From positions 124,695 through 188,694 of the forward strand of contig CAADXH010000018.1 of NCBI GenBank assembly GCA_900752975.1: a DNA stretch of 64,000 nucleotides, read 5' to 3'. This DNA comes from Bacilli bacterium. Lineage in GTDB: Bacteria; Bacillota_I; Bacilli_A; ML615J-28; CAG-313. Within the stretch, counting starts at the first letter, position 1. Each line of letters begins with the position of its first letter. A program made the translations under genes and the position numbers. Of the stretch, positions 2,110-56,941 are shown in pieces. Below the pieces are notes generated by a model. It was not told the origin of the DNA. It saw only the letters and a list, made by a program, of their open reading frames with translations, and searched no databases.

Positions 2110-3204
2110 TTATTTGTCGCATTTATCCTTGTCATCGCAACGACTACAGATAAGATTATTTTTATTTGGAGCAGCTCCATTAGGACAATCCTCATAAAAA
2201 TGATGTTGTTGTTTAGGATAAAAAGGATATTGTTGTGTAGGTGTCAAAGATCTAATTATCTGGTCAATAACATCTATATTCTTATTAACAACATCTGTAT
2301 TCTTACTTTCATCTATATTTATATAGATTCTGTAAATCGTATGCTCATAAGATGTTCCTAAAAATTTTTGAGTAATCGATACATTATCAACAACTAAGTC
2401 TTTAAGCCTTTCACTGATCACCTTATTTTCAATATTTATTTTAGAATAAGCAAGGATATAAGAAACCAAATCAACTTCGTTATATTTACGCTTTAAAATT
2501 AATTTTATTTCAAAAGACTCAATTTTTTGTTTTTCATTGGTTAAATGAATACGTTCTATCGCCTCTTCAACTGATTTACCGATTATATTTGTAATTATAG
2601 GTGTTCCTGCAATTATTTCAGGTACGTCAGATTCTGCGTTTATAGTTTGAGGTTTATTTGTCTTCTCTGGCTTTTGTTTATTCGTCTCAGACTTATCCAA
2701 TTCAGGGAACAATTGTTCAACACAAATTGTTTCCTTAGAGGCTTGATAAATACGTTCCATTGTAACGTTCGATACATCGGAAAGTGTTCCAAATGTAAAG
2801 CCTTTTCCATAGAGCTTATCATTGATTATTCCTGCGATGTTAGCATAACAATGATCTCTTGGAACAATGTTATCTTCAGTTCCATTATATAAAGGAATGA
2901 ATACCTTCATATTATTTGGAAGATACTTAATAGCTTCTTTCAAATCACCGATTGTCATGTTTTTCGATTCCGTAAGGTCTGGAACAAAGTCATTATCCTT
3001 CTTACTCTTTACCTTTACACACAGTGTATCTGGAGAGAAAGGACTAATACCAATCACTTCATGATTCAAATAATCAGAAATGATATTGGTAGTTACTGCT
3101 GTAGCTCCATTCTTGTATTGTTCAGATACAATAATATCTGTACTTTCGATCATTCCACTGTTGATAACGTCCTTCAGTGTTACCATTTTCTTGTTGTTGT
3201 TCAT
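2110..3204 (-). CDS. hypothetical protein, paralog of 3222-3911 (shared N-terminal ~30 aa); Cys-rich C-terminus
   Basis: SD GGAGGAA precedes the third ATG (MNNNKKMVTLKDV...). The N-terminus and the SD region are conserved at DNA level with the next gene. Confidence 0.6.
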   Translation of the reverse strand: MNNNKKMVTLKDVINSGMIESTDIIVSEQYKNGATAVTTNIISDYLNHEVIGISPFSPDTLCVKVKSKKDNDFVPDLTESKNMTIGDLKEAIKYLPNNMKVFIPLYNGTEDNIVPRDHCYANIAGIINDKLYGKGFTFGTLSDVSNVTMERIYQASKETICVEQLFPELDKSETNKQKPEKTNKPQTINAESDVPEIIAGTPIITNIIGKSVEEAIERIHLTNEKQKIESFEIKLILKRKYNEVDLVSYILAYSKINIENKVISERLKDLVVDNVSITQKFLGTSYEHTIYRIYINIDESKNTDVVNKNIDVIDQIIRSLTPTQQYPFYPKQQHHFYEDCPNGAAPNKNNLICSRCDDKDKCDK

Positions 3205-3221
3205 TTTAGTTTCCTCCATTT

Positions 3222-3911
3222 TCATTTTGTTTTATAGGTTTTGTTTACGTATGCGGATAAATATAAAAGTGCTTTATTGAAAGCATCTTTATTTTTATTT
3301 AGATCTACACAAATAAGGTAATCATTTTCAGGAGTTCTATATAATTTATCAACTCCCAAAATATTAACAAGTTTAGTTGTTTCATCAATCACTACTTCAT
3401 CAGAATAAATCTTGGTATCAGTACAATGAAGACTATTAAATAGATAGGAGTATAAATTAACATAATGAGGTATTGGATTATCAACAAATAAGGTTAAGTT
3501 AATATTTTTAGATTTTACCCCACCATCAAGAAGGTATTTTATCATTCCTCTAGCAGTCTCATTGTTATTAAACGACAACGAGATAGAATTATCCATTGTC
3601 CTAGTATAGTAATCACCGTTACTCACTACCATATTCCGAAAATCATCCTCATTAAGATTATTCGTTACACGAAAATTTACGGTTGAAATGTTTATAATTA
3701 ATTCAGCAAATCCAATTGGATTTGGACTAACAATTATAGATATAACTTCACAATCATGAAACTTATCAAAATTAGAAGTAAGATCAAGTGATTCATCTTC
3801 ATAATTTTTTAAGTCAGCATCATAAAGGGAAAACCCGTTTGTCATTTTTTCGATAACACCACTATCAATATAGTCCTTCAGTGTTACCAACTTCTTTTTG
3901 TCGTTGTTCAT
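3222..3911 (-). CDS. hypothetical protein, paralog of 2110-3204
   Basis: MNNDKKKLVTLKDYIDSGVIE... versus MNNNKKMVTLKDVINSGMIE.... SD GGAGGAA. Confidence 0.6.
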   Translation of the reverse strand: MNNDKKKLVTLKDYIDSGVIEKMTNGFSLYDADLKNYEDESLDLTSNFDKFHDCEVISIIVSPNPIGFAELIINISTVNFRVTNNLNEDDFRNMVVSNGDYYTRTMDNSISLSFNNNETARGMIKYLLDGGVKSKNINLTLFVDNPIPHYVNLYSYLFNSLHCTDTKIYSDEVVIDETTKLVNILGVDKLYRTPENDYLICVDLNKNKDAFNKALLYLSAYVNKTYKTK

Positions 3912-3975
3912 TTTAGTTTCCTCCATAAGATAAATATTTAAGACATCTCTGTCTTATTACCTAAATAGTATATAA

Positions 3976-4530: not shown

Positions 4531-5310
4531 TTATACACAGTACATGATTGGTTGGTTTTCATTTGCAGGGTTTACATATCCGTCACGAAGTGTACTAATA
4601 AAATCATCTCTTCTACTTGCCCAGTTTTCTATATAACTTAGTTTCAAATCTACTCCGGCAAACACTGTTTCCAACCCATCATAATGCTGAAGATAAGCTA
4701 CTAGAAAATTAGCTACATCAGCAGTTGCAAGATTCTCAAAAAGTTCCATTTGGGTAGGCGGTATCGTAGATAAATTTGATGGATGAGTTACAAATACATC
4801 CAATGGAATTTCTCCAAGACCACCAGTAATATCACCATGAGTTGCACTTTGTAGTCTTACCATATTTGGAAATTTAAAGTCAATAAAGATACTATTGTTA
4901 AATACTGATGTAAGGTCAGCTCTTGCTTGTAATAGCATTACATCATCCATAGAATAACTATTATAAGCAGATAAATAGTCATAATATCCGATACCAGATT
5001 GCTGAGCCATACCACCATCGTTTTGCCCATATACATCCCAAGCAATATCTCTAACACCAAGAATTTCAGCACCACCAAGTAAGTCTGTATTGATTACATA
5101 GTAATCACCTTTCTTATTTTTTGGATCTCTTGTATCAATCTTGATTCTTACCATATGAGGAATATATCTAGAAAATGTAAGAAGTGTATCAGGAATAATT
5201 GTCTCATCAACCCATTTATCTTTCGCAATATCTTCGGGAAGCATTAGAGGTTTTGTTCCCAATCTACGCTCAATCTTATTAAGAAGAATATTCATTTTAT
5301 TAAAAGCCAT
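4531..5310 (-). CDS. hypothetical protein
   Basis: SD GGAAGGAG precedes MAFNKMN...; 259-aa ORF. Confidence 0.6.
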   Translation of the reverse strand: MAFNKMNILLNKIERRLGTKPLMLPEDIAKDKWVDETIIPDTLLTFSRYIPHMVRIKIDTRDPKNKKGDYYVINTDLLGGAEILGVRDIAWDVYGQNDGGMAQQSGIGYYDYLSAYNSYSMDDVMLLQARADLTSVFNNSIFIDFKFPNMVRLQSATHGDITGGLGEIPLDVFVTHPSNLSTIPPTQMELFENLATADVANFLVAYLQHYDGLETVFAGVDLKLSYIENWASRRDDFISTLRDGYVNPANENQPIMYCV

Positions 5311-5354
5311 ATATAACACTCCTTCCGTTATATTATAATGATGTTCAAGACAAA

Positions 5355-5390
5355 AAATAAGGGTGGATTTTCATCCACCCCATTTTTTTA
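5355..5390 (-). terminator. rho-independent terminator (symmetric; A-run/T-run on both sides)
   Basis: GGGTGGAT-TTTC-ATCCACCC hairpin flanked by AAAAAATAA and CATTTTTTTA, downstream of the gene ending at 5417. Confidence 0.7.
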
Positions 5391-5416: not shown

Positions 5417-6433
5417 TCAGATATTAGATTCTTGTCTTTCTTGATAAGCAGGATAGATCTTCTTATCATCTGTGAGAATAGCATGCTTAAGTTGAAACTC
5501 ATTCTTAAGAATAATAGAAATCCTATGCTTAACGTCATCTGCTGAATAATGATCAGGTATAAGATACTTAAATGATTGTCTAAACGAATCCATTACAAGT
5601 GTTCCACAAATTTCATATATTTCTTCTTGTGAAACTCCTCTTCCAAAAGATAAAAGCATATTCCTAATTTTCTTAAAGACTATGCTATCCAAAATCTTTT
5701 CATAGTCATACGCGGAATACGTACAATTAACTGTTTCAACAGTTCCTGATGTTCTTGGTATGAGTTCATCATCTGTTGGAATACTGCGTACAGAATACTT
5801 TTGATTTAAAAGACAGGTAGTAAATCCTGGAATCATATAACCATTCATTACATCATATATAGACAAATCTCCGAAAATGATATAACGAATCCGATCAAAC
5901 TCTTTACGAGTAATACACTGGTATCCAAAAATATCTTCAAATTCTATCAAGAATAAATAACTTTCCTTATGGAATTTATCCAATCTATATTGATCGAGTA
6001 ATTTCTGAAGAAAGGTACTATTTGTATCAGAACTAAAAACACCATAATCGATTCTACACTTACTGTATTCCCTTCTGATATCGATGATATCATAATCTTT
6101 TACCAATTCTGGATTATAATCATTGAACGAAAATACAGAAAGCTCTTTAATAATATTTTCTTTGATTGTTTCATCTCCAAGTGAATACTCAGCCAGTTTA
6201 GGAAATGATAACCTCCTTATAGTGTTAGTTAATTCCTTATTCTTACCAATAGTGTTCAAAATAGTCTTTCCATTTTTATCAATGAAATTGAGATGATCAA
6301 TAATAGCTAAAGCTGCAGCATCATACATCTCCTTTAAAGACATATCTTCCTTAATACCATAACGTCTTATTATTGCCGTCATGATTCCATTAAAGATGGT
6401 TGTTGTTCTTGCGTTTCTCTTTGTTGTTTTCAT
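5417..6433 (-). CDS. hypothetical protein, paralog B1; C-terminal 31 aa copied from the DNA polymerase KKxY/thumb region
   Basis: Paralogous to 6499-7422 (MKT[TA]KRNART.TIFN..., YMIPG, ELIP.TSGTV.TVN, KNMLLSFGRG.SQEEIY.ICG). Its tail ILKNEFQLKHAILTDDKKIYPAYQERQESNI is close to identical to the polymerase residues encoded at 55378-55470. Confidence 0.65.
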   Translation of the reverse strand: MKTTKRNARTTTIFNGIMTAIIRRYGIKEDMSLKEMYDAAALAIIDHLNFIDKNGKTILNTIGKNKELTNTIRRLSFPKLAEYSLGDETIKENIIKELSVFSFNDYNPELVKDYDIIDIRREYSKCRIDYGVFSSDTNSTFLQKLLDQYRLDKFHKESYLFLIEFEDIFGYQCITRKEFDRIRYIIFGDLSIYDVMNGYMIPGFTTCLLNQKYSVRSIPTDDELIPRTSGTVETVNCTYSAYDYEKILDSIVFKKIRNMLLSFGRGVSQEEIYEICGTLVMDSFRQSFKYLIPDHYSADDVKHRISIILKNEFQLKHAILTDDKKIYPAYQERQESNI

Positions 6434-6498
6434 AATAATTCTCCAATCTGTGTTTTAACGTCTTTATCACCTGACATATTATTTATTTAACCTTTTCT

Positions 6499-7422
6499 TT
6501 ATATCTCATCTTTGAACAAGTCTCTACCCTTTAATACCGAATAATAATCGGACACAAGATGTTTTAGCGATGGATTGAGTATATACACAAATGATCCACA
6601 AATATCATATATTTCTTCTTGTGAAAGTCCCCTTCCAAAAGATAAAAGCATGTTCTTAATTTTCTTAAAGACTATGCCATTCAGAATCTTTACATAATTA
6701 ACTGTTGAAACAGTTCCTGATGTTTTTGGTATAAGTTCATCATCTATTACTTTAGAGATAACTCCCTTATCACCATATCTAGATGCGATTTTACCATCAT
6801 CATTTGTTGGAATACTGTGTACAAAATACTTTTGCTTTAAAAGGCAGATAACATGTCCTGGAATCATATAACCATTCATTACGTCATATATTACATCATC
6901 ACTAAAAGTGATATAACGGATTCGATCAATTTGCTTACGAGTAAGGAACTGATATCCAAAGATTGTTTCGAAAAGAATCAATGCTCTGTAATTCTTTTCC
7001 TGATGTGCTCTCCGAATATAATCCTTACACAAGTCTCGAATAAAGTAAGATTCAGATAAGTTATCAATTCTATCAATCAGATATGAAATGAATGTATCAT
7101 TATCAAATTGATTGATATCAAATTTGTGGATGTCAATAAAGAACTGTCTAGTTTCAGGATTTATAACTTTGATATAGTTATCAGAATCAACCAAAGATAC
7201 TCTTCTTCCCTTGTTAATCAAGTCCTTATTTGGTCCAAAGGTATTATATATAACCTTTCCGTCTGCATCAAGGAAATGGAATATAAAATCATCCTTTTCT
7301 TCCAAGATGTCGTACACCGAACGCAATTTTCTTTTTCTATAAATACCATACATAGAAGTTACTGCGTGCATAACATTGTTAAAGATGGTTACGGTTCTTG
7401 CGTTTCTCTTTGCTGTTTTCAT
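6499..7422 (-). CDS. hypothetical protein, paralog B2
   Basis: Same family as 5417-6433. The upstream ~45 nt, including a conserved 15-codon mini-ORF, is also duplicated. Confidence 0.65.
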   Translation of the reverse strand: MKTAKRNARTVTIFNNVMHAVTSMYGIYRKRKLRSVYDILEEKDDFIFHFLDADGKVIYNTFGPNKDLINKGRRVSLVDSDNYIKVINPETRQFFIDIHKFDINQFDNDTFISYLIDRIDNLSESYFIRDLCKDYIRRAHQEKNYRALILFETIFGYQFLTRKQIDRIRYITFSDDVIYDVMNGYMIPGHVICLLKQKYFVHSIPTNDDGKIASRYGDKGVISKVIDDELIPKTSGTVSTVNYVKILNGIVFKKIKNMLLSFGRGLSQEEIYDICGSFVYILNPSLKHLVSDYYSVLKGRDLFKDEI

Positions 7423-7532
7423 AATAATTCTCCAATCTGTGTTTTAACGTCCTTACCACCCGACATGTGATTAAAATTTATCAGCATCGTCCTCATCATC
7501 AATGAATACTTTACCTGTCGGTTTCATCTCTT

Positions 7533-7946
7533 TCATTTCAGATTCAAATGATGTTTTTTGAGCTTCTTATTGTAATAGAATGATTCTAAAGGGTTAATCC
7601 AATAAGATTCAACATTTGTATGAATATGAAGGATTTTATGACCACTACAAGGAACATAGTACAAATTACATTTTGTAAAGATTCCTGCAAGTTCTGGTTC
7701 CATTTCCTTTACCCGATAAATGATAAAGGAAATAGCTTCTGTCGAATTTTTGAAAATGTATGATAAAGAATCGCTACATTTCATAAAAACTTCTTCATCA
7801 CCAAACACTTTCATAGCGTCGGTAATCAAATTACTGCGTCCTATCACGCTTTCTAAGTCATAATCAAACACTTTCATAGTACCGGTAATCAAATTACTGT
7901 GTTCTATCATGCTTTCTAGGTCATAGTTCTTGTCAAAAATTTTCAT
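7533..7946 (-). CDS. hypothetical protein with N-terminal tandem ~20-aa repeats
   Basis: SD AAGGAGAGG precedes MKIFDKNYDLESMIEHSNLITGTM / KVFDYDLESVIGRSNLITDAM / KVFGDEEVF; 7790-7930 forms a DNA tandem repeat. Confidence 0.6.
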   Translation of the reverse strand: MKIFDKNYDLESMIEHSNLITGTMKVFDYDLESVIGRSNLITDAMKVFGDEEVFMKCSDSLSYIFKNSTEAISFIIYRVKEMEPELAGIFTKCNLYYVPCSGHKILHIHTNVESYWINPLESFYYNKKLKKHHLNLK

Positions 7947-20822: not shown

Positions 20823-21065
20823 TTAGGGTTCATCATAATAATCTTCATCATCGTCATAGTAATCTTCTTCATAGAAGTTACCAGTTGCTTTCTCAACCTC
20901 CCTTTCGATATATTCTTTATAATCAGAAACAGCCTTTTCAGCTGCTTCTTTGGAGTTGTATTCTCCAATAAGAATAAAATAATCTTCTGGAAGAATACTA
21001 GAGATGCAAATTTCATCGTCGAAATCTTCAGTTGTGTAAGCATAAAAAGTTGTATTTGCGTTCAT
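20823..21065 (-). CDS. small acidic hypothetical protein
   Basis: Immediately downstream of the conserved leader copy A; ends ..EEDYYDDDEDYYDEP. Confidence 0.5.
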   Translation of the reverse strand: MNANTTFYAYTTEDFDDEICISSILPEDYFILIGEYNSKEAAEKAVSDYKEYIEREVEKATGNFYEEDYYDDDEDYYDEP

Positions 21066-21232
21066 GGTAATAGCCTTTTCCCTTCACCCTGGGAACATAG
21101 AATTTCTACGTCTGATGCTTGAGGTTTCAGGTATGCATCAACCTGTTTTCGATATAGAGTAATATTACTATCTCTATTCACTATAATTATATATAAATGA
21201 ATATACATAGTTTTACAAATATATACGCCTTA
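21066..21232. promoter_or_regulatory. bidirectional promoter + conserved 5' leader cassette, copy A (inverted repeat partner of 34505-34672)
   Basis: ~170 bp that is near-identical (with one 10-bp indel) to the reverse complement of 34505-34672. The leader half (21066-21160) abuts the ATG of 20823-21065. The promoter-motif half (21176-21219, ATTCACTATAATTATATATAAATGAATATACATAGTTTTACAAA) faces 21288. Confidence 0.65.
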
Positions 21233-34504: not shown

Positions 34505-34672
34505 GTAATGACTTTGTAAAACTGCGTATATTCACTTATATATAATTATAGTGAATAGAGATAGTAATATAAGCTATATTCTATATCGAAAACAGGTTGA
34601 TGCATACCTGAAACCTCAAGCATCAGACGTAGAAACTCTACGTTCCCAGGGTGAAGGGAAAAGGCTATTATC
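34505..34672. promoter_or_regulatory. bidirectional promoter + conserved 5' leader cassette, copy B
   Basis: Reverse complement matches 21066-21232. The motif half (34514-34557) faces 32146-34455. The leader half (34576-34672) abuts the ATG of 34673. Confidence 0.65.
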
Positions 34673-35122
34673 ATGACCAACACAACTACTGCAACAAACA
34701 ATGCAATCGCTTCCGCTACGACAAACGGCTTTACCTTTGAAGCTGTGCTGAATGAAGTATCAGTTACTGATACAATGCACGCTACAATGGTAGAAACAAT
34801 GTTCAACATTGTTGTCACCAACACAGTAAGAAAGGGGGTACATGTTACCGAAAACTATCTCAAAAGAATGAACGAAACGTTCGAAAAGTTTTTAAAAGCA
34901 ACCAAAATCAAATATGTCAAGTCGGATATCGATCTTGACAGAACATTTGATGAAAAAACATTCATCTTTGAAGCAGACAAAGATGAATGGGAAGAAAATG
35001 CAATCAGCTTGATTGCATTATTAAAGAAAGAAAGAATCACATTTGACGAAAATACAGAAGAAGGATTTATCTGCTATGATGAATCTCAGAATTCTGAAAA
35101 AGATTTAATTATCGTCGAATAA
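34673..35122 (+). CDS. hypothetical protein (Thr/Ala-rich N-terminus)
   Basis: Directly follows the conserved leader; 149 aa. Confidence 0.5.
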   Translation: MTNTTTATNNAIASATTNGFTFEAVLNEVSVTDTMHATMVETMFNIVVTNTVRKGVHVTENYLKRMNETFEKFLKATKIKYVKSDIDLDRTFDEKTFIFEADKDEWEENAISLIALLKKERITFDENTEEGFICYDESQNSEKDLIIVE

Positions 35123-35804: not shown

Positions 35805-37841
35805 TTATGCTCCAATCTCCTTAGGCTTACTATACAAATAACCATCCTTAAGACTATTATAGATTTCAGTAAAGTTATTAAAATCAGACTTATCGAAATC
35901 AAATTTAGGTTGTTCAAATACAGACTTATCTCCACAAGCCATTGCATTAACAATCTTCAAATCTCGTTTATTTTTACAATTAATAAACAATCCACGATTA
36001 TCAACTTCTGGTTTTCTGGATACATCGTCAAAATCATGATACGTCAATATACCATTCGGTCGTCTTACTGTTGTGAAATACTCAATGATGTCATCATACA
36101 TTTCTTCATAACCAGCAAAATGGAACCAACGACTAAAGAATTCAATCCAGTTATGTGACTGTAAATCATCCATGAATTGAGCTTCTCTTCTCCATTTGAT
36201 TTCATCTCTATGAAATCTATTTTCAAATTCATATACCTTTTCTGGGATATTAACATGCCCAATCAATGTCGTCTGCGACATGTTAAATTCAGATGTGATT
36301 GATGGATACAAAGACTTATAATCAAAGTCATCCAGATTATTAAAGATAGATACTGGAATACCATTAATTCTCATCTTAGAATAATCACTATTATATTTCG
36401 GGTCTGCAACAAATGCACCTGGGAATTTTTCTTTCGGTGTATTCTGATTTGTATTATTACCCATAATCATTCCATATCTATAATATGACTTTGCTGCTCG
36501 ATTCTTAAGATATACAGTTTGACGATATATTTTTGACCAACGAGTATTGTCTAACAATACATTATTATATGCAGAGTCAATATCATTTACTTTAAACTCT
36601 ATACAATACTGTACAATTGTATCCATAATATTATAGAATACGAATGTTTCATAATCTTTATATGGTAATTCTGCAAGTTTCGTTGTAATATGACTATAAT
36701 CAAGTTTCTTTACACCACAAGTAATCTGTCCGATATAATCCAACTTATAATTCTCAATCGCTTTTTGTCCCTTTCGTCTAGACGCAAAATGAATCATCTG
36801 ATCAAGATACACCGAATATGAACTAATCTTTGCGAAGTCATTTCTTTCTTCATAATTAAACTTATTCTTCTCATCAATAAAGTAATTTACTTCTTTATAT
36901 CTGAAATCTGGATGACACATAATATCCTTTGGATTATATCCAAGATTGATAATTCGTTGGATGATATACGGAATATCGAATGCCATGTTCCATGCTAGCA
37001 CAGTATCTGGTTTGATATTGTTAATATAATTGAATAGGTGTTTTAATAAAACAATCTCATCTTCTTCATCATAGAAATGAAATTGAACAGTCATCTTATC
37101 AATCTTATACTTACAAGCTTGTTTCTCTCCACCAACCGCATCGATTAAGAATTGTCGTAATCGCATATTCAATGATGGTTTATTACATTCTTTTTCAAAT
37201 TTCTCAATCAATGGATTCTCTTTATTTCGTAATAAGAATGAATGAACAACCAAGGACTGATCATCAATAAATGATACTGCATTGATTGGACATTCACCAA
37301 GTTCTACGAATTCACCCTTACAATCAATTGTATCAGCTTCAATATCAAGAAATGATTTCGATGGTTTGGTATAACTATTCTCATATGAGTTCGCAAATTG
37401 AAACCTGATGTTATCTTCAATATCCATATCAGACATCAGGATCGCTGGGTTATAATTACATAACACTTTATTTGCAGCTCGATTCCGATTACGAATGTTT
37501 TCAAAGAACTCATTTGTTTTTCCTAATCGGTCTGCAATGTCTTTTTGAAGAGATATAAACGGCGTGATGATTCGTTTACAATCTTCTTTCATTGCATATT
37601 CCAAAGTATATCTTGGAACTTCTTTTCCATCAAGTAGCATATAATATTCATACTCAGGATTAATTATTGTTTCCAAAAACTTTTCACCTGACCGAATATC
37701 TTTGATAATCAAATCAATTGCCGGTGATAACCATTTCCCATTCGGATCTTTCTTTGGGTAATGGTAAATCGTGTTTAATAAAGATAACGGATATCCTTTT
37801 GGATATTGACCTATCAAAAAATCATCTTCGTAATATTTCAT
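35805..37841 (-). CDS. family B DNA polymerase, N-terminal part (3'-5' exonuclease domain + polymerase motif A)
   Basis: Exo I FLDIEAD; Exo II AWNMAFDIPY; motif A DFDYKSLYPSI. The ORF stops about 170 aa after motif A, and motifs B and C are absent. SD TAGGAGGC. Confidence 0.75.
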   Translation of the reverse strand: MKYYEDDFLIGQYPKGYPLSLLNTIYHYPKKDPNGKWLSPAIDLIIKDIRSGEKFLETIINPEYEYYMLLDGKEVPRYTLEYAMKEDCKRIITPFISLQKDIADRLGKTNEFFENIRNRNRAANKVLCNYNPAILMSDMDIEDNIRFQFANSYENSYTKPSKSFLDIEADTIDCKGEFVELGECPINAVSFIDDQSLVVHSFLLRNKENPLIEKFEKECNKPSLNMRLRQFLIDAVGGEKQACKYKIDKMTVQFHFYDEEDEIVLLKHLFNYINNIKPDTVLAWNMAFDIPYIIQRIINLGYNPKDIMCHPDFRYKEVNYFIDEKNKFNYEERNDFAKISSYSVYLDQMIHFASRRKGQKAIENYKLDYIGQITCGVKKLDYSHITTKLAELPYKDYETFVFYNIMDTIVQYCIEFKVNDIDSAYNNVLLDNTRWSKIYRQTVYLKNRAAKSYYRYGMIMGNNTNQNTPKEKFPGAFVADPKYNSDYSKMRINGIPVSIFNNLDDFDYKSLYPSITSEFNMSQTTLIGHVNIPEKVYEFENRFHRDEIKWRREAQFMDDLQSHNWIEFFSRWFHFAGYEEMYDDIIEYFTTVRRPNGILTYHDFDDVSRKPEVDNRGLFINCKNKRDLKIVNAMACGDKSVFEQPKFDFDKSDFNNFTEIYNSLKDGYLYSKPKEIGA

Positions 37842-38107
37842 ATTTAGCCTCCTAATCATCAACGAACGTAATACGTTCTTTCAATCTATTTATATATTTG
37901 TTTTCTCTGATGTAAAAGAAAAAATTATCTCCACAGAATGAACTGTGGAGATATCCAAATAAAATTAACAAGAGGAAAACAAACAAACTTCACAAGAGGA
38001 AAATCATGTCAACCAGATTTAAGGTCTTCCAACCTTATTTAAATGTTAACAAATATTAACGATTTATAAGAAAAACATCTCTATAAAATCACAAAGGAGG
38101 AAATAAC

Positions 38108-40865: not shown

Positions 40866-43457
40866 ATGCTTACATATGGTGATATAATTACACGTCAAAG
40901 AAATCTTCTATCCGGAGAACCAAAATGTAATATCAATGTTAATCAAGTATATGAATCATTAAAAGAAAACTATTCATACCAAAAAGCTAAACTTGTATTA
41001 GAAAATTGGACTGGATTTAAGAATGAAGATATTGCTATTGACAAAGTATTAGAAGTATTCACAATCATTGCAGATAATGACAATGATTCAAACATCAGAA
41101 ATGCTTCTAATATTATTGAAGGTAAAATTATCCCAAAATTACGTAATGCTAAGCAGACAAACAAACTGAATCATTATAAACGTGGTTGGATTAAACATAG
41201 ACATACAGCTATGCTTAATGATACAAAAGATAATGAAAATGCAGTTTCAAAAGCGAAAGCAAATGGTGGATATCTTGGAAATTCTCTACACCCAAATAGA
41301 AAATATAAACGGGATATTTATGGTCGTAAGATGGGAGAAGTCAAAAAATCAAATGGAGATGAGAATAAGCAGTCTGAATCAGATACTGAGAAAAAAGATG
41401 TTGCTACCGAGTGTTTCGATAGATTCATTCATATTGCATTTGTAAATGAACAATGTGACAGAGTTTTAACTAACCATTCTAAACTCACAAAACGATTTAA
41501 CCTTGATAATATGGTTAGAAAATGCCCATTAACAGAAGCAGCATTAAAGGATTGCGTGTATAATATCTGTGATTTAATCAATACATATGAATCTGCTTTT
41601 GGTGTAAGATATGATATTGCATTAGAAAATATCATGTATTTAATGTCAAAAAACTGTGTTCCTGTGGACAACAAATTTATTCTTGAAACGGTTACAGATT
41701 ATTTTTTAATGACTGAGCTTAATGAAGAAACTGCAGATGCAAAACTTCATGATATGATTTATATTATAGAAAATTCTAAATTCTTTAGTCCAGAAGAATT
41801 AAGTATTGTATCTTATCTTTATGAAGATGAACAAGCCATTATCGAAGCAGTAGAGAATGAAGAAGATATTGAACAGATTCCTTTGGAAGAAAACAAAGTT
41901 CATGATATGTTCATGAAATATAAGAAAAAGAAAATAGTTACAATCAAGAAAAAGAACAAGTTAGAATCATTAAAAATCAAAAAGATTATTCATGACTTTA
42001 AGAAAGAACACAATAAATCGATTGAAAAGTTTAAGATTGCAATTTCTAGAATCTTTGTAAATAGTCCAGAAGGAATTATCAATGAACTTCCTGATATCTT
42101 TGAATTTGTAAGACTTGGTATTGTTCTAGGTGGATTTGCTATTAATCCTATTCTAGGTATTATTACATTAATTACTGGATTCTTTTTAAGAATGAAAGTA
42201 GCAAGAGAAAGAATGGAAAAAGTATGTGAACAATACGAAAAAGAACGTGATCGTTATAAGAAGAAAATGAATGAAACTGATGATGAAAAGAAGAAAGAAA
42301 AATACAAGGCTCTATATAATCAATATAAGAATGATTTATATAAATTAGAAAGTTATAGAGATGATCTATATACAGAGGCAGAAAATGATAAACGTATGGA
42401 AGAGAAATATGCAAAAGAAGCTGAAGCAAGTAGTGATGATTTCAACTTTGATATAGATTTTAATTTCGATGAACAAGCTGCTATTAATTATACCGAATTA
42501 CTCTCCACTTTATATGAACAATTGTCTTATACAAGAGGAGATTTAATGGTAGCGATTTCTAATAATATCAAGGATATGGATAGTGATGATATCTATAATA
42601 TAACTGAAGCTATAAAAGTTTGTAATGATATAGTAGATTGTCCAAGATATATCACAATTCTTGAAAATGAATTAGAACGAGTAAGAAATAATAAACAATC
42701 CTCTTTCATAGCATCTCTCCAAAAAATTGATACAATCAAAACTTGTATCTCTGATATCAATAGTGTAAAGTACAATAGCCTATTAGAAACAGCATATATA
42801 TCTAATGATACTGACTTACCGGATATAGAAACTGTATATGAAACAATGAAATATAAATATGATATTATTGATGATATAATTGATTATATAGCAGAATCAA
42901 AAGACGAAAAATCTGGGATGTCATTCTTAAGTAAAGTAAAAATTGCAGGGGAAAACTTAAGACGTTCTATGCTAAAAGCAAAGGATAAAGATAAGCAACT
43001 TAGTATGAAGTTAGATAGTGAATTGAATCGAACAATGAAATCTGCTAAGAAAGCAATGATTAGTGATAGTAGAGAAAGCATTATTCGAGGTTCTTTTTTA
43101 CCTTCTGCTTCTAAATGTATCCACCTTGCACTTGCAAGTGGAGTAGTTGCATTGTTTAGTCCTGTTGCAGCTGTAGTTGCATTGATTGGCTTTATTGGTT
43201 CATCTAAAGTATTAACTGAAAAAGAACGTAATCTTATACTAGATGATATTGATATAGAAATCAAAATGTGTGATAAATATCTTAAAGCTGCCGAAGATAA
43301 AGATGACTTAGTTGCAGTAAGAGAAATTATGAAAACAAAACGTGACTTAGAAAGACAACGTGCTAGAATTCTTTATAACAAGAATTATATCTTTAAAGGA
43401 AAGAAGCAGTATGATATGCCAGATAAGTCTAGAAAAAAGAACAATGATGATGATTGA
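40866..43457 (+). CDS. large coiled-coil protein with two hydrophobic Gly/Ala-rich segments
   Basis: GIVLGGFAINPILGIITLITGFFL and LALASGVVALFSPVAAVVALIGFIGSS; K/E-rich heptad-like stretches. Confidence 0.55.
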   Translation: MLTYGDIITRQRNLLSGEPKCNINVNQVYESLKENYSYQKAKLVLENWTGFKNEDIAIDKVLEVFTIIADNDNDSNIRNASNIIEGKIIPKLRNAKQTNKLNHYKRGWIKHRHTAMLNDTKDNENAVSKAKANGGYLGNSLHPNRKYKRDIYGRKMGEVKKSNGDENKQSESDTEKKDVATECFDRFIHIAFVNEQCDRVLTNHSKLTKRFNLDNMVRKCPLTEAALKDCVYNICDLINTYESAFGVRYDIALENIMYLMSKNCVPVDNKFILETVTDYFLMTELNEETADAKLHDMIYIIENSKFFSPEELSIVSYLYEDEQAIIEAVENEEDIEQIPLEENKVHDMFMKYKKKKIVTIKKKNKLESLKIKKIIHDFKKEHNKSIEKFKIAISRIFVNSPEGIINELPDIFEFVRLGIVLGGFAINPILGIITLITGFFLRMKVARERMEKVCEQYEKERDRYKKKMNETDDEKKKEKYKALYNQYKNDLYKLESYRDDLYTEAENDKRMEEKYAKEAEASSDDFNFDIDFNFDEQAAINYTELLSTLYEQLSYTRGDLMVAISNNIKDMDSDDIYNITEAIKVCNDIVDCPRYITILENELERVRNNKQSSFIASLQKIDTIKTCISDINSVKYNSLLETAYISNDTDLPDIETVYETMKYKYDIIDDIIDYIAESKDEKSGMSFLSKVKIAGENLRRSMLKAKDKDKQLSMKLDSELNRTMKSAKKAMISDSRESIIRGSFLPSASKCIHLALASGVVALFSPVAAVVALIGFIGSSKVLTEKERNLILDDIDIEIKMCDKYLKAAEDKDDLVAVREIMKTKRDLERQRARILYNKNYIFKGKKQYDMPDKSRKKNNDDD

Positions 43458-43471
43458 TGGAGGTGATAAGA

Positions 43472-44491
43472 ATGGATTATCTAGAAGGATTGAGAAGTAT
43501 CTTAAACGAAATTAATGTCGGTTCTGATCAACCATCTGCTGATAATACAACCGACGATTCCGAAGATGATGGAGATCAGAATTTCATGGACGATGGTGGT
43601 GGGGACGATACTACTACAGATGCTCCAGAAGAAACCACAGATGATTCCGAAGATGATGGTGACCAAAACTTCATGGACGACGGTGGTGGAGAAGATACTG
43701 GAGAAGATACAACACCTCCAGCTGACAACACTGCAGATGAAGATGATGGAGATCAGAATTTTATGGATGACGGTGGTGGAGACGATACTACTACAAATGA
43801 TACAGCAGATGCTTCCGAAGAAACCACAGATGATTCCGGAGATGATGATGCTGGCCAAAACTTCATGGACGACGGTAGTGGAGGAGACACTGGAGAAGGT
43901 GGAGGAGACGATGCTTCAGGTGGTGATGGAGGAGAAGAAACCACTGATGATTCTGAAGGAGAAAATAGTGAAGAATCCGAAGAAGGCTCTGATGAAAATG
44001 GATATGATATTAATAAAATTGAAGAGGAACTTTTCTCTAGTCTAACCCCTGAGCAAATTGCAATCAAGAATCATGAATTAAAGAATCAATTTATCGAATT
44101 ATATTCTATTATTGGAAGTACATTGGTCCGAATCAATGACATTTCTAAAACAAATGAAAATATCAATGTACTAAAATTTATTACAGAAAAATTATTGGAA
44201 TTAAGAGAAATGATTGACTTTAATATTACAACAGCATATCAAACTAGAACGTACATTGAGAATAACATCATCTATCAACAGTGTATTGCTACGTTAAATG
44301 CAATTGCAGAAATCATCGATAATATTCCAAAATTAGATGGAAGAGACGATTCAGAAGAAGAATCTGAAGAAGATAAGAATGGTATCCCAGTAGATAATGA
44401 AGATGAGGAAGAAACTCATACCTTAAATATATCTGACACAACATCTGGTAGTACTTATCAGGAAGAATCTGCGTTCAATTCCTTATTTTAA
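43472..44491 (+). CDS. acidic tandem-repeat protein (4 x ~25-aa (T/A)DDSEDDGDQNFMDDGGGDDTT units)
   Basis: SD GGAGGTGA precedes MDYLEG. DNA tandem repeat about 43540-43900. Confidence 0.6.
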   Translation: MDYLEGLRSILNEINVGSDQPSADNTTDDSEDDGDQNFMDDGGGDDTTTDAPEETTDDSEDDGDQNFMDDGGGEDTGEDTTPPADNTADEDDGDQNFMDDGGGDDTTTNDTADASEETTDDSGDDDAGQNFMDDGSGGDTGEGGGDDASGGDGGEETTDDSEGENSEESEEGSDENGYDINKIEEELFSSLTPEQIAIKNHELKNQFIELYSIIGSTLVRINDISKTNENINVLKFITEKLLELREMIDFNITTAYQTRTYIENNIIYQQCIATLNAIAEIIDNIPKLDGRDDSEEESEEDKNGIPVDNEDEEETHTLNISDTTSGSTYQEESAFNSLF

Positions 44492-54002: not shown

Positions 54003-56102
54003 ATGGATATCACACAAATGGTTAACAGTCCGACAGTAGATATATATAAGAATGAGATGTTGGATGCTCTGAAACTATCATTTCCTGGTTTGACAGAATT
54101 TGATTTGAGAGAAGCAATCGATTATTCTATTGTAAAGAGAGGTAAGGATAGTAAAGCATATCTAGATAATAACTACAAAAAAGTAAGGGAAAAGAGAACT
54201 CTGTTTGAGATTACAGATTATATCATTCAAAGAGAACCGATTATTACAGTATCTGGTGTTATGTTTAAGAAACATGGTTCTTGTCCAAACCCATTCGTAA
54301 GATTAATTCAAGAGTTCTTGGAACAAAGAGGAATCTATAAAAAAACAATGTTCAAGTATCCGAAAGGTTCAGAAGAATTTGAAAAGTATAATATTCTTCA
54401 ACTTTCGGAAAAAGTTTCTGGTAATGCAATGTATGGTGCATCTGGTAATCATACAAGTGTCTTCTATAATCTTTATGTAGCAAGAAGCATTACAATGCAA
54501 GGTAGAAGTTGTATTGCAGCTGCTATTATGCTGTTTGAAGCTACAATGGCAAATAATGTAAAACTTCTCAGTTTAAACGATGTTGTTACATTTATCAATA
54601 ATGTAAGAAGAGAACCAATTGGAAAATATCCTGATGAGATTATTCTTGATAAAGATAAGTATGTGACAGCAGAAGAATGTTTCTTTAAAATCTTATACAG
54701 TTGTGGATTCTATTGGATTCCAACTGAAAAAGAAATGACTCTGATTTGGGATATTATTAATCAATGTAGTCAGCATGAGTTGAACAAATTGTTTTATAAA
54801 AACAATCTATTCTGGTTTGTAGATAATAGCGTCGTAATGAATAAAATTTTAAGTATTTTGTCTACTCTTGATGCACCATTTATTGACCCGAATGAACCAC
54901 CGGAATCTATCAAAGGAATGATGGATGAATTATATGATATGATATTTGAATGGGTTTATTATGATAAACAGTATATGGATAGAATCGATAGAACTGAGAA
55001 TATGTATCGTTGCGTATCTATGCTTACAGATACAGATAGTTGTTTCATTTCATTTGATGGATGGTATCGTTATATTCTAGATAAAACATTCAATATTCCA
55101 ATGAAGATTAAAGAACTTGAAATCGAAGAAAAAACTGGTGAAATAAAAGAAGCTTTTGATATTTCATATGACTATGATTTCTATACAGATGAAATTATTG
55201 AAAGTCAGAACATTATTAGACCTGACGTTATCACACCTCAAGTAGGATTCCGTTGTAGTATTATCAATATTCTTGCTAGTATTATGGGGAAACTTGCAAT
55301 TGACTATATGGGTAAGTATTCTGATAACTCTAATTCTACAACTTGTTATGACGGTTCAAAGCGTAAGAGTTTCTTCATTCTTAAGAATGAGTTTCAACTT
55401 AAACGTGCTCTTATTACGGATGGTAAAAAGAACTATTGTGCATATCAAGAAAGACAAGAATCTAATATCATCCCAAAAGAAAAAGCATTATCAATTACAG
55501 GTATGCCGATTAAAAAAGTTGGTGTTCCGGAATCTACTAAGATTAGATTACAGAGAATTTTACTCGACCAAGTACTTGATAATCCTGGAGAAATCTCTCA
55601 AGTAGAAATTGTAAAGCAACTAGCTGTGTTGGAAAAACAAATCATTGAAGCAATCGAAAATGGTAGTAAGGATTATTTCAAGCCTGAAAGAATTAAAGCA
55701 TTCAGTGCATATGATACTCCGATGAGAGAATCTGGTATTAAAGCATCTGTTGCATTTAATTTCTTGAAAGATGATAATATGGAAGCAATTGACCTAGACC
55801 AAAGAAACAGTATTCTAAATATCAAAGTAAACATTGACAAAAAGAATGTTGATGGGTTGAAAGAAAAGTATCCACAGATTTATGAAAAAGCGGTAGAGCT
55901 GATGACTACAAAAAAAGAATTCGCTAAGGGAATTACAGGTATTGCAATTCTTGATAATATGCAAGTTCCGGAATGGGTAAAAGATTATATTGATTATGCA
56001 ACAATTGTAAATGATAATCTTCGTTCATTCCCATGTGAAGCATTAGGTATAGACCGTATTGAAAATAAGTATATAAACTATACGAATATTTTGAAGTTCT
56101 AA
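54003..56102 (+). CDS. family B DNA polymerase, C-terminal part (motifs B, C, KKxY; palm/fingers/thumb)
   Basis: Motif B KVSGNAMYG; motif C LTDTDSCFISF; KKxY region GKKNYCAYQ. SD TTGGAGGT. Begins about 130 aa before motif B and has no exonuclease domain or motif A. Confidence 0.75.
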   Translation: MDITQMVNSPTVDIYKNEMLDALKLSFPGLTEFDLREAIDYSIVKRGKDSKAYLDNNYKKVREKRTLFEITDYIIQREPIITVSGVMFKKHGSCPNPFVRLIQEFLEQRGIYKKTMFKYPKGSEEFEKYNILQLSEKVSGNAMYGASGNHTSVFYNLYVARSITMQGRSCIAAAIMLFEATMANNVKLLSLNDVVTFINNVRREPIGKYPDEIILDKDKYVTAEECFFKILYSCGFYWIPTEKEMTLIWDIINQCSQHELNKLFYKNNLFWFVDNSVVMNKILSILSTLDAPFIDPNEPPESIKGMMDELYDMIFEWVYYDKQYMDRIDRTENMYRCVSMLTDTDSCFISFDGWYRYILDKTFNIPMKIKELEIEEKTGEIKEAFDISYDYDFYTDEIIESQNIIRPDVITPQVGFRCSIINILASIMGKLAIDYMGKYSDNSNSTTCYDGSKRKSFFILKNEFQLKRALITDGKKNYCAYQERQESNIIPKEKALSITGMPIKKVGVPESTKIRLQRILLDQVLDNPGEISQVEIVKQLAVLEKQIIEAIENGSKDYFKPERIKAFSAYDTPMRESGIKASVAFNFLKDDNMEAIDLDQRNSILNIKVNIDKKNVDGLKEKYPQIYEKAVELMTTKKEFAKGITGIAILDNMQVPEWVKDYIDYATIVNDNLRSFPCEALGIDRIENKYINYTNILKF

Positions 56103-56150
56103 ACAAAAAAGAAGAATGGATGTAGAGTCCATTCTTCTTATTCTGTCTTT
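56103..56150. terminator. bidirectional rho-independent terminator
   Basis: AAGAAGAATGGA-loop-TCCATTCTTCTT hairpin flanked by an A-run and a T-run. Confidence 0.7.
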
Positions 56151-56671
56151 TAGCAAGCTTTGCAGTCAAGACCAAACATTCCGATTAAATCTAATGCCCA
56201 GCTAACATTCAGCTGACGTTCTGCATAAGGTTCAATTCCGATTGTTTCACAATTATGATTATTACAGAATTCTATTAAAGCTTCAGACGCATCGTCACGT
56301 TCTACGATTTCCATCTCAAATAACTTTTCAAGAATTTCATGTAAATAAACCCAATCGCTAATATACTGCATTACCTGAGATGCATCTTCAGCAGACATGC
56401 CACCGAACATGCCGATCAAATCTTCAACCAGGCTAATATTCAGCTGACGTTCTGCGTAAGGTTCAATTCCGATTGTTTCAGAATCGTGTTCATTCATCCA
56501 AGATACGAATGCACCATTCATGTCTTCCAGATTAGCTGTATCCATTCCGAAGCCAAACAGCTTTTCGGAAATTTCACACAGATAAATGTAGTCATTCAAG
56601 TAAGAGATAACTTCCTGTGCGTTGTTAGCGGTTGCGATTGCAATATTGTTCATCATTTTAGCGTTCATCAT
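56150..56671 (-). CDS. hypothetical protein made of two ~80-aa internal repeats
   Basis: The segment ..ETIGIEPYAERQLN.S...DLIGMFG occurs twice. SD GGAGGC precedes MMNAKMMN. The ORF-track N-terminal extension is leader sequence. Confidence 0.55.
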   Translation of the reverse strand: MMNAKMMNNIAIATANNAQEVISYLNDYIYLCEISEKLFGFGMDTANLEDMNGAFVSWMNEHDSETIGIEPYAERQLNISLVEDLIGMFGGMSAEDASQVMQYISDWVYLHEILEKLFEMEIVERDDASEALIEFCNNHNCETIGIEPYAERQLNVSWALDLIGMFGLDCKAC

Positions 56672-56833
56672 AATAAGCCTCCAAAGTTTCCGGAACATAG
56701 TGAACTATCAATATAGGTTTGTTCCAATAACCATATAATGATATTGTACATTGTTGTACGGCTCAGTTTTAAGTCATCCAAGCGTCCAGACTAAATAGAC
56801 CTTTCTAAGGATAATACTATAATACTATCTTCT

Positions 56834-56877
56834 ATTCATTATAATTATATATAAGTGAATATAGGTAGTTTTACAAA
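56834..56877 (+). promoter_or_regulatory. third copy of the recurring promoter-like motif
   Basis: ATTCATTATAATTATATATAAGTGAATATAGGTAGTTTTACAAA, about 65 nt upstream of the ATG at 56942. A diverged leader-like sequence (GGAACATAG...) lies on the other side, upstream of 56150-56671. Confidence 0.55.
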
Positions 56878-56941
56878 GTCCGATATATTCTACTATCTTT
56901 AACATATCTATAATTGTGTAAATGAAAGGAGGATATTATAT

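Follow-up and report, generated by a model that had tools for sequence, protein, structure and literature searches.

The td and nrdB introns of phage T4 and the DNA polymerase introns of SPO1 and SP82 are examples of exon co-conversion and ectopic effects arising from the mobility of group I introns and homing endonucleases, in T4-like phages gp43 and nrdA are 'genes in pieces' split by homing endonucleases, and a comparable case from fungal mitochondria is the mobile open reading frame (ORF) element of Allomyces atp6. The intron in PhiPA3 gp210, an RNA polymerase (RNAP) beta gene, illustrates the mobility of an intron and its homing endonuclease in a phage gene, and intron endonucleases that cut the RNAP beta gene of jumbo phages and act in phage–phage competition have been documented experimentally (PMC11620839). 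Duplication or exchange of host-gene fragments through intron mobility is described for the mitochondria of Tremella fuciformis (summarised in PMC8393795). Here we analyse a 64,000-nt stretch of contig CAADXH010000018.1 (the window), which comes from an uncultured jumbo phage of a clade of ~215-kb AR9-like phages. Two tandem ORFan paralogs lie near one end of it, p338 (338 amino acids, aa) and its sister p307, and p338 terminates in a tail that resembles a piece of the active-site region of polB, the gene for the catalytic subunit of the phage's family B DNA polymerase. With a probability of about 0.6, we regard this tail as a passenger fragment of polB that arose by ectopic recombination and rides in frame on a recombination-prone ORFan array. 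The finding is a real and well-documented curiosity, not a new mechanism or a new kind of system.

The locus resembles phage group I introns in its target, namely the catalytic motifs that are most strongly conserved in the polymerase genes of large lytic phages, and phage intron homing in that tracts of ~100 bp around a site have been copied and that the polB genes of relatives carry such introns with HNH ORFs. Unlike in intron homing, the tract here lies in frame within an unrelated gene at a distance of 50 kb, neither an intron nor an endonuclease adjoins it, and no intron-bearing close relative is known. As in fungal mitochondria, partial in-frame duplicates of conserved host-gene segments would have arisen close to mobile intron or endonuclease activity and persist as gene pieces; there, however, the duplicate lies beside the invaded gene together with the mobile ORF, whereas in our phage it is found at an ectopic site, fused to an ORFan lacking an endonuclease signature. 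A polymerase gene present as separate ORFs, in a lineage with mobile endonuclease genes, is a feature shared with the split genes of T4-like phages. In our phage the exonuclease and catalytic halves of polB are encoded on opposite strands ~16 kb apart, and since AR9 and PBS1 have the same two-gene layout, also with ~16 kb between the genes, the split is ancestral; unlike in the T4-like split genes, no endonuclease separates the halves, and the arrangement is unrelated to the tail, contrary to a suggestion in the initial annotation that the tail might bear on how polB became split. The split polB of Listeria phage LPJP1 was considered as an instance of the same site and dismissed, as it is split near motif C instead. 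Finally, a repeat of ~110 nt at the 3′ end of an ORF with centrally clustered mismatches recalls the template and variable repeats of diversity-generating retroelements. Such an element was rejected because the mismatches involve all four bases rather than being adenine-specific; moreover, the 'template' would be an essential coding region, and no reverse transcriptase was found among the 20 window ORFs scanned with Pfam and PHROGs.

The similarity between the tail and polB was recovered in three ways. A repeat search of the window returned an inverted repeat with arms at 5420-5530 and 55359-55469 (111 nt, 83% complementary, 49,828 nt between them), blastn of the tail region against the window gave 84.8% identity over 112 columns (E=2.8e-29, the next best match having E=0.13), and tblastn of the 338-aa protein aligned residues 299-338 to the polB segment with 67.5% identity over 40 aa (E=2.8e-10). 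The high-identity core (ILKNEF...QESNI), which corresponds to polB 55377-55469, is identical at 81/93 nt and 25/31 aa, and over the full 40 codons the figures are 95/120 nt and 27/40 aa. The core has runs without mismatch at its flanks, 26 and 27 nt long, and all 12 of its mismatches are confined to the central ~40 nt. The C-terminus of p338 reads ...DDVKHRISIILKNEFQLKHAILTDDKKIYPAYQERQESNI before the stop codon, and the corresponding part of polB encodes DGSKRKSFFILKNEFQLKRALITDGKKNYCAYQERQESNI. The initial annotation had thus correctly reported an inverted match of 25 out of 31 residues over a distance of 50 kb, as well as the run of 27 nt, while several of its details needed correction: the polB segment, given as 55378-55470, was one base out of frame, the other run is 26 rather than 22 nt long, the first three bases of its tail interval (5417-5510) are the stop codon, and weaker similarity reaches 9 codons further upstream than the core that it delimited. 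It was also right that p307 lacks the tail; p307 ends ...LFKDEI, exactly where the tail starts in relatives. Assemblies of independent metagenomes from ENA, JGI and Logan contain 66 related protein clusters that end in the tail, and it occupies the same syntenic place in four independent IMG/VR contigs. No match to the locus was obtained by blastn among GenBank phages, and a protein search with the polB segment as query gave only 3 matches and added little. The p338 protein is not itself a polymerase domain, which would combine palm motifs A, B and C with KKxY in one polypeptide, as it contains the equivalent of polB codons 450-489 only and has no PF00136 or PF20286 match. Antisense pairing between the two mRNAs was considered and rejected, because each copy is sense within its own transcript.

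Several lines of comparison argue firmly for a transfer from polB into the paralog, the direction that the initial annotation had proposed. The polB segment is protein-invariant in 17 orthologues (75-100% identity) and still conserved in relatives at 40-49%, the distant family member in the loci L041/L042 has no tail, and the genomic slot of the paralogs is empty in the outer clades (L-numbers, L001-L069, designate the loci of relatives that were compared, and P-numbers protein clusters). The ratio of nonsynonymous to synonymous changes (pN/pS) is 0-0.06 for the polB segment, 0.23-0.54 for tails against polB, 0.3-0.45 among tails and 0.3-0.77 for the rest of the paralog; the values for the tail resemble those of the remaining paralog, and constraint on it is relaxed. 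The tail is degenerate, with at least 31 variants, the middle of which takes the form DDKKIYPAY, a polB-like DGKKNYCAY or intermediates mixing both, and in some tails KK has changed to EK, breaking the KKxY motif. Upstream of the core there are three junction types, and P0036 and P0038 retain only ...AYQERQESNI. All 66 tails nevertheless share KH where polB has KR, which points strongly to a single capture followed by shuffling. Measured against polB alleles, tails match those of the window clade at 78-81/93 nt and more distant ones at 67-79/93 (mostly 67-74), and at synonymous sites the closest alleles are again those of the window clade. Since, in addition, no polB allele with the YPAY variant of the tail occurs in 241 million metagenome records, the fragment came from the polB of this clade and acquired its differences where it now lies; the same scan led us to reject the idea that the central variant stems from a foreign polB allele. 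Ongoing concerted evolution with the phage's own polB is not seen either, the L034 tail lacking two synonymous changes of its own polB in L010. Taken together, a donor under strong purifying selection and a relaxed, younger copy found in one subclade and matching it at E=3e-29 are what one would look for in an ectopic gene-fragment duplicate.

A second fragment of similar size is found in the same family, this one derived from the part of the RNAP beta gene that encodes the GxKG motif. The scrap in p307 matches phrog_3295 ('RNA polymerase beta subunit', E=5.6e-4) and was also found by tblastn; p338 retains a truncated remnant of it, and many family members have none. That the paralog might be a genuine RNAP beta fragment was rejected, as the match is limited to 104 nt and the true beta gene continues differently. 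Runs identical between scraps and donor genes measure 26, 27 and 32-34 nt. The order of scraps varies by subfamily, P0098 having a degenerate polB-like scrap followed by the beta scrap as C-terminal tail, and the C-terminal third of the family proteins is a mosaic. No other donor genes for the mid-module or the N-module were found in the window and 69 loci. On a separate, 5.2-kb contig sequenced at 2x coverage (L001 2963-4390, P0103), the 5′ part of RNAP beta continues into the 3′ part of a p307-like paralog, the junction falling within an identical run of 34 nt; the contig represents either a genuine recombinant that has lost 90 kb or a chimera made in assembly.

The paralog family is restricted to this clade of phages. 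With p307 as query against 5.8 billion proteins, 118 were retrieved, all unnamed and all metagenomic, many of them from ~215-kb contigs, and a profile search of 1.84 billion cluster representatives returned only 8, every one a family member. AlphaFold models the N-module (aa 1-~215) with confidence (predicted template modelling score 0.72-0.74), whereas both scraps are predicted to be disordered, with a predicted local distance difference test score (pLDDT) below 50; in p338 the low-scoring region comprises residues 284-338 and includes the tail. The N-module structure had no Foldseek match in PDB or BFVD, and searches of the paralogs against Pfam, PHROGs, NCBIfam, PADLOC and PDB sequences gave no nuclease, DNA-binding or known-fold match. 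In particular, none of the nuclease domains or folds of homing endonucleases (HNH, GIY-YIG, LAGLIDADG, PD-(D/E)xK, EDxHD) could be recognized, which answers negatively the proposal of the initial annotation that the 338-aa paralog be examined for a nuclease fold.

Wherever they occur in the genomes examined, the paralogs occupy one slot, bounded by a small variable gene on one side and a conserved virion structural gene on the other, at a distance of ~50 kb from polB and ~90 kb from the beta gene. This slot is empty, occupied by an unrelated ORF, or occupied by one or two paralogs (Table 1), that is, presence or absence is polymorphic at a fixed locus as with homing genes, which however are located within or adjacent to their target gene. 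The last gene of the array, adjoining the terminator, bears the tail in 5/6 close-clade loci. The unrelated ORF found in the slot of one relative (L043 4821-5912, 363 aa) weakly matches phrog_3233 (RNA polymerase beta subunit, E=1e-3) with its N-terminus and phrog_10678 (unknown function) with its C-terminus; it may be another gene of this slot assembled in part from polymerase sequence. In the window, the virion gene is followed immediately downstream (2110-3926) by a second tandem pair of paralogs, of 371 and 234 aa, both starting MEETKMNN..KK.VTLKD, and the number and length of these genes also differ among relatives.

Homing elements do occur in the two donor genes of relatives. In distant relatives polB is interrupted by three insertions in L032 (3436-5006, 5928-7385 and 7521-7912) and by two in L030 (3565-3912 and 4273-4593), and in each of the two genes one insertion falls between the codons equivalent to L460 and K461, that is, between positions 55382 and 55383, 6 nt inside the copied core. 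At the junctions of this insertion the 5′ splice site is preceded by a U and the 3′ splice site by ACGG. In L032 this insertion is a group I intron with an HNH endonuclease ORF, and a 135-nt mini-exon around KKxY is flanked by Rfam group I intron matches (E=1.3e-4 and 6.5e-7), and the ORFs of two of its insertions match the HNH endonucleases of phrog_2081 (1e-44 and 1e-39). Likewise, an HNH/homing endonuclease ORF (phrog_559, 3e-57) interrupts the beta gene of Bacillus phage Internexus at a point 17 codons downstream of the scrap region. The coincidence of both scraps with intron or endonuclease sites of relatives is thus established, if approximate, and makes a link between scraps and homing elements plausible; to this extent the homing-type link drawn by the initial annotation holds. 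The window itself has no group I intron ribozyme core at E<=1 in an Rfam scan of its whole length, for which L032 and L030 served as positive controls (RF00028, E=4e-8 to 1e-4). P0122/L056, which resembled a separate downstream polB exon, was rejected as such: the gene is polB, which gene callers split because it contains an in-frame TAA near codon 443 (L056 ~5490), and the TAA is a nonsense mutation or a sequencing error, not an intron.

The following course of events would account for these observations. Ectopic recombination or gene conversion would have placed a copy of a ~115-bp segment of the resident polB (codons 450-489) at the 3′ end of a lineage-specific ORFan residing in the variable slot upstream of the virion structural gene. 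This would have happened once, inside the window clade, after its split from the clade with 88% identical polB and before the present strains radiated. The fragment would then have been kept in frame as a disordered C-terminal extension, slowly decaying, while tandem duplication, unequal crossing-over and deletion in the array generated the tail-less p307 and the several junction types, and a second fragment of like size, from the GxKG region of RNAP beta, would have entered the same family in the same way. The trigger may have been the repair of double-strand breaks made at the conserved motifs by homing endonucleases of co-infecting relatives; provided that the capture took place, we put the odds of such a trigger at roughly even.

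A number of observations weigh against this scenario or parts of it. The Rfam intron matches in relatives are all below gathering score, and close relatives have no intron or endonuclease at these sites, 17/17 polB and 7/7 beta genes (from clades at 63-100% identity) being uninterrupted. The polB copy spans the intron site, from -10 to +29 codons, instead of ending there, and 17 codons separate the end of the beta scrap from the insertion in Internexus, so that the coincidence is only approximate. Endonucleases typically target conserved motifs, and these are also the slowest to decay, so that old copies remain detectable there, which is an ascertainment bias. The pN/pS of ~0.3-0.5 and the near-universally intact ORF of the tail could reflect some selection, in which case it is not a pure passenger, and the confinement of the 12 core mismatches to the central 40 nt has no explanation in the capture model. 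The donor search, moreover, covered about a third of the genome (the window and the fetched loci).

The same observations lend themselves to other explanations. Chance illegitimate or microhomology-mediated recombination, without any homing endonuclease, could have produced the scraps, with a false association arising since only slowly evolving motifs stay recognizable. The intron-free close relatives and the scrap boundaries that do not fall exactly at insertion sites would fit, as would an array that is visibly recombination-prone, with duplication, unequal crossing-over and possibly the beta–paralog hybrid of L001. We nevertheless consider chance alone unlikely, given two scraps of nearly equal size (104-112 nt) and divergence (85-89%), both within ~50 nt of HNH-bearing insertion sites in relatives, and no scraps from other genes in the sequence available. 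The initial annotation had gone further and viewed the paralog as a homing-type mobile gene that once sat in or next to polB and left carrying flanking exon sequence. Such a gene, or its descendant, would have to possess a novel nuclease fold and to have moved from polB (and RNAP beta) to its present slot, which we consider improbable. Free-standing homing genes typically show the kind of presence/absence and copy-number polymorphism seen in the slot, the motifs represented by both scraps have HNH-bearing insertions in relatives, and the family consists of fast-evolving ORFans, but none of the profile, sequence and structure searches revealed a nuclease or DNA-binding signature, no ribozyme was detected in the window, the paralog is never found beside polB or the beta gene, and its most distant member has no scrap at all. 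The contiguity of the polB copy across the intron site is also at odds with a one-sided flank carried away by a departing element.

Alternatively, the scraps might be functional, either as intron-less homing-site decoys or cleavage-resistant repair templates, or as peptides with which the paralog protein mimics segments of the polymerases. In support, one can cite a tail ORF that is intact in 66 clusters with pN/pS <1, a polB copy that spans a known intron homing site and has diverged on one side of it, identical runs long enough to be used as homology arms, and two independent scraps that both represent endonuclease-prone motifs. Yet there is no sign of conversion of polB by the tail, whose variant is absent from the 17 polB orthologues as well as from the 241-million-record scan, some tails no longer have an intact KKxY, p338 retains only part of the beta scrap and many members have none of it, disorder is predicted for both scraps, their order differs from one subfamily to another, and an additional target copy would mean an additional break rather than prevention of one; a function of this kind therefore strikes us as very unlikely. 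We assign a similarly slight probability to the idea that the ORFan family as a whole is a dedicated store of intron-less homing-site copies, serving as repair templates or decoys against co-infecting relatives, or conversely a homing nuclease of unknown fold that carries pieces of its targets. An assembly chimera or sequencing artefact, which the initial annotation had named as a possible undoing of the tail, has a negligible probability: the L001 contig, with its junction inside an identical run, could be chimeric, but the tail is in frame, has diverged from polB (12/93 core mismatches), exists in its at least 31 variants in 66 clusters from many samples and assemblers, and is syntenic in the four IMG/VR contigs. 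We thus retain capture of a polB fragment by ectopic recombination as the best explanation of the tail.

As to the phage itself, the window has a G+C content of 32% and encodes, besides the divergent family B polymerase catalytic subunit (PF20286) and the separate exonuclease-side polB gene, pieces of a multisubunit RNA polymerase and a major head protein. Related contigs measure 212-225 kb, and in them tubulin-like and RecA-like genes adjoin the RNAP beta gene. The closest cultured phages are Bacillus phages AR9 and PBS1, at an identity of only 27-31%; the product of polB is 27% identical to the AR9 'DNA-polymerase catalytic subunit' across residues 15-699. Other repeats were also noted in the window. 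An intergenic repeat of 50-160 nt (TCTATTCACTATAATTATATATAA.TGAATATA..GTTTTACAAA), 94-96% identical and present in both orientations (21062-21219, 34513-34676 and 56831-56880), may serve as a promoter or in regulation. At 43540-43982, ORF 43454-44491 contains four to six acidic tandem repeats, each ~90 nt long (DDGDQNFMDDGGG...). Two small genes have internal duplications, namely a 63-nt tandem repeat at 7795-7920 in the 149-aa gene adjoining the paralogs and a 93-nt repeat with 231-nt spacing at 56171-56494 in ORF 56150-56698.

Table 1. Features of the paralog array, the two polB genes and the variable slot in the window and in related loci.
Feature	Position or locus	Strand	Evidence or slot content
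Conserved virion structural gene, downstream bound of variable slot	4531..5319	-	phrog_18911 2e-23; synteny
Intrinsic terminator hairpin directly 3′ of tail; fixed 3′ end of paralog array	5360..5381	-	9-bp stem then T-run
ORFan paralog p338: conserved N-module (aa 1-215), truncated RNAP-beta remnant, mid-module, polB tail	5417..6433	-	sequence comparison, AlphaFold
Stop codon of p338	5417-5419		
polB-derived C-terminal tail of p338, 40 codons; high-identity core 5420-5512	5420..5539	-	repeat search, blastn, tblastn, exact counts; pLDDT <50
Truncated RNAP-beta remnant in p338 (RSIPTDDELIPRTSGTVE); ~20 codons deleted relative to p307	5735..5788	-	sequence comparison
Duplicated 5′ leader and first paralog codons, marking the tandem duplication unit	6390..6483, second copy 7379-7472	-	90% identical, repeat search
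ORFan paralog p307: N-module, full RNAP-beta scrap, mid-module, without polB tail	6499..7422	-	sequence comparison, AlphaFold
RNAP-beta-derived scrap in p307 (SIPTNDDGKIASRYGDKGVISKVIDDELIPKTSGT), GxKG motif region; donor gene outside window	6713..6816	-	104 nt, 89.4% identical to L008 beta gene, E=1e-36
N-terminal (exonuclease-side) polB gene, encoded separately as in AR9	35805..37862	-	phrog_3011 1e-54; 31.5% identity to AR9 'DNA polymerase'
Catalytic subunit, divergent family B DNA polymerase (polB), 699 aa	54003..56102	+	Pfam PF20286 4e-28, PF00136 2e-13
polB donor segment, codons 450-489 (KKxY region), with the group I intron site of relatives between 55382 and 55383	55350..55469	+	tblastn; protein-invariant in 17 orthologues
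Slot, polB ~97-100% identical to window (measured on L033 and L034 contigs only)	L033-L036, window		one or two tandem paralogs
Slot, polB not measured, virion gene 92% identical	L054		two tandem paralogs
Slot, polB 88%	L041/L042		one distant family member (343 aa), no scrap
Slot, polB 85%	L043		unrelated ORF
Slot, polB 84%	L044/L045		empty
Slot, polB 79-80%	L067-L069		empty

The case shows that ORFan accessory genes grow by taking in pieces of core genes, and that runs of 26-34 nt identical to essential genes persist in a compact phage genome, even though recombination through them would be lethal. Were the family a store of homing-site copies or a nuclease of unknown fold, either would be a new type of player in phage–phage interference. 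If, on the other hand, the scraps did originate in break repair, they would be fossils of sites in essential genes that homing endonucleases once attacked, preserved even in genomes that are intron-free today, and past intron-mediated interference competition in uncultured phages could then be mapped from sequence alone.

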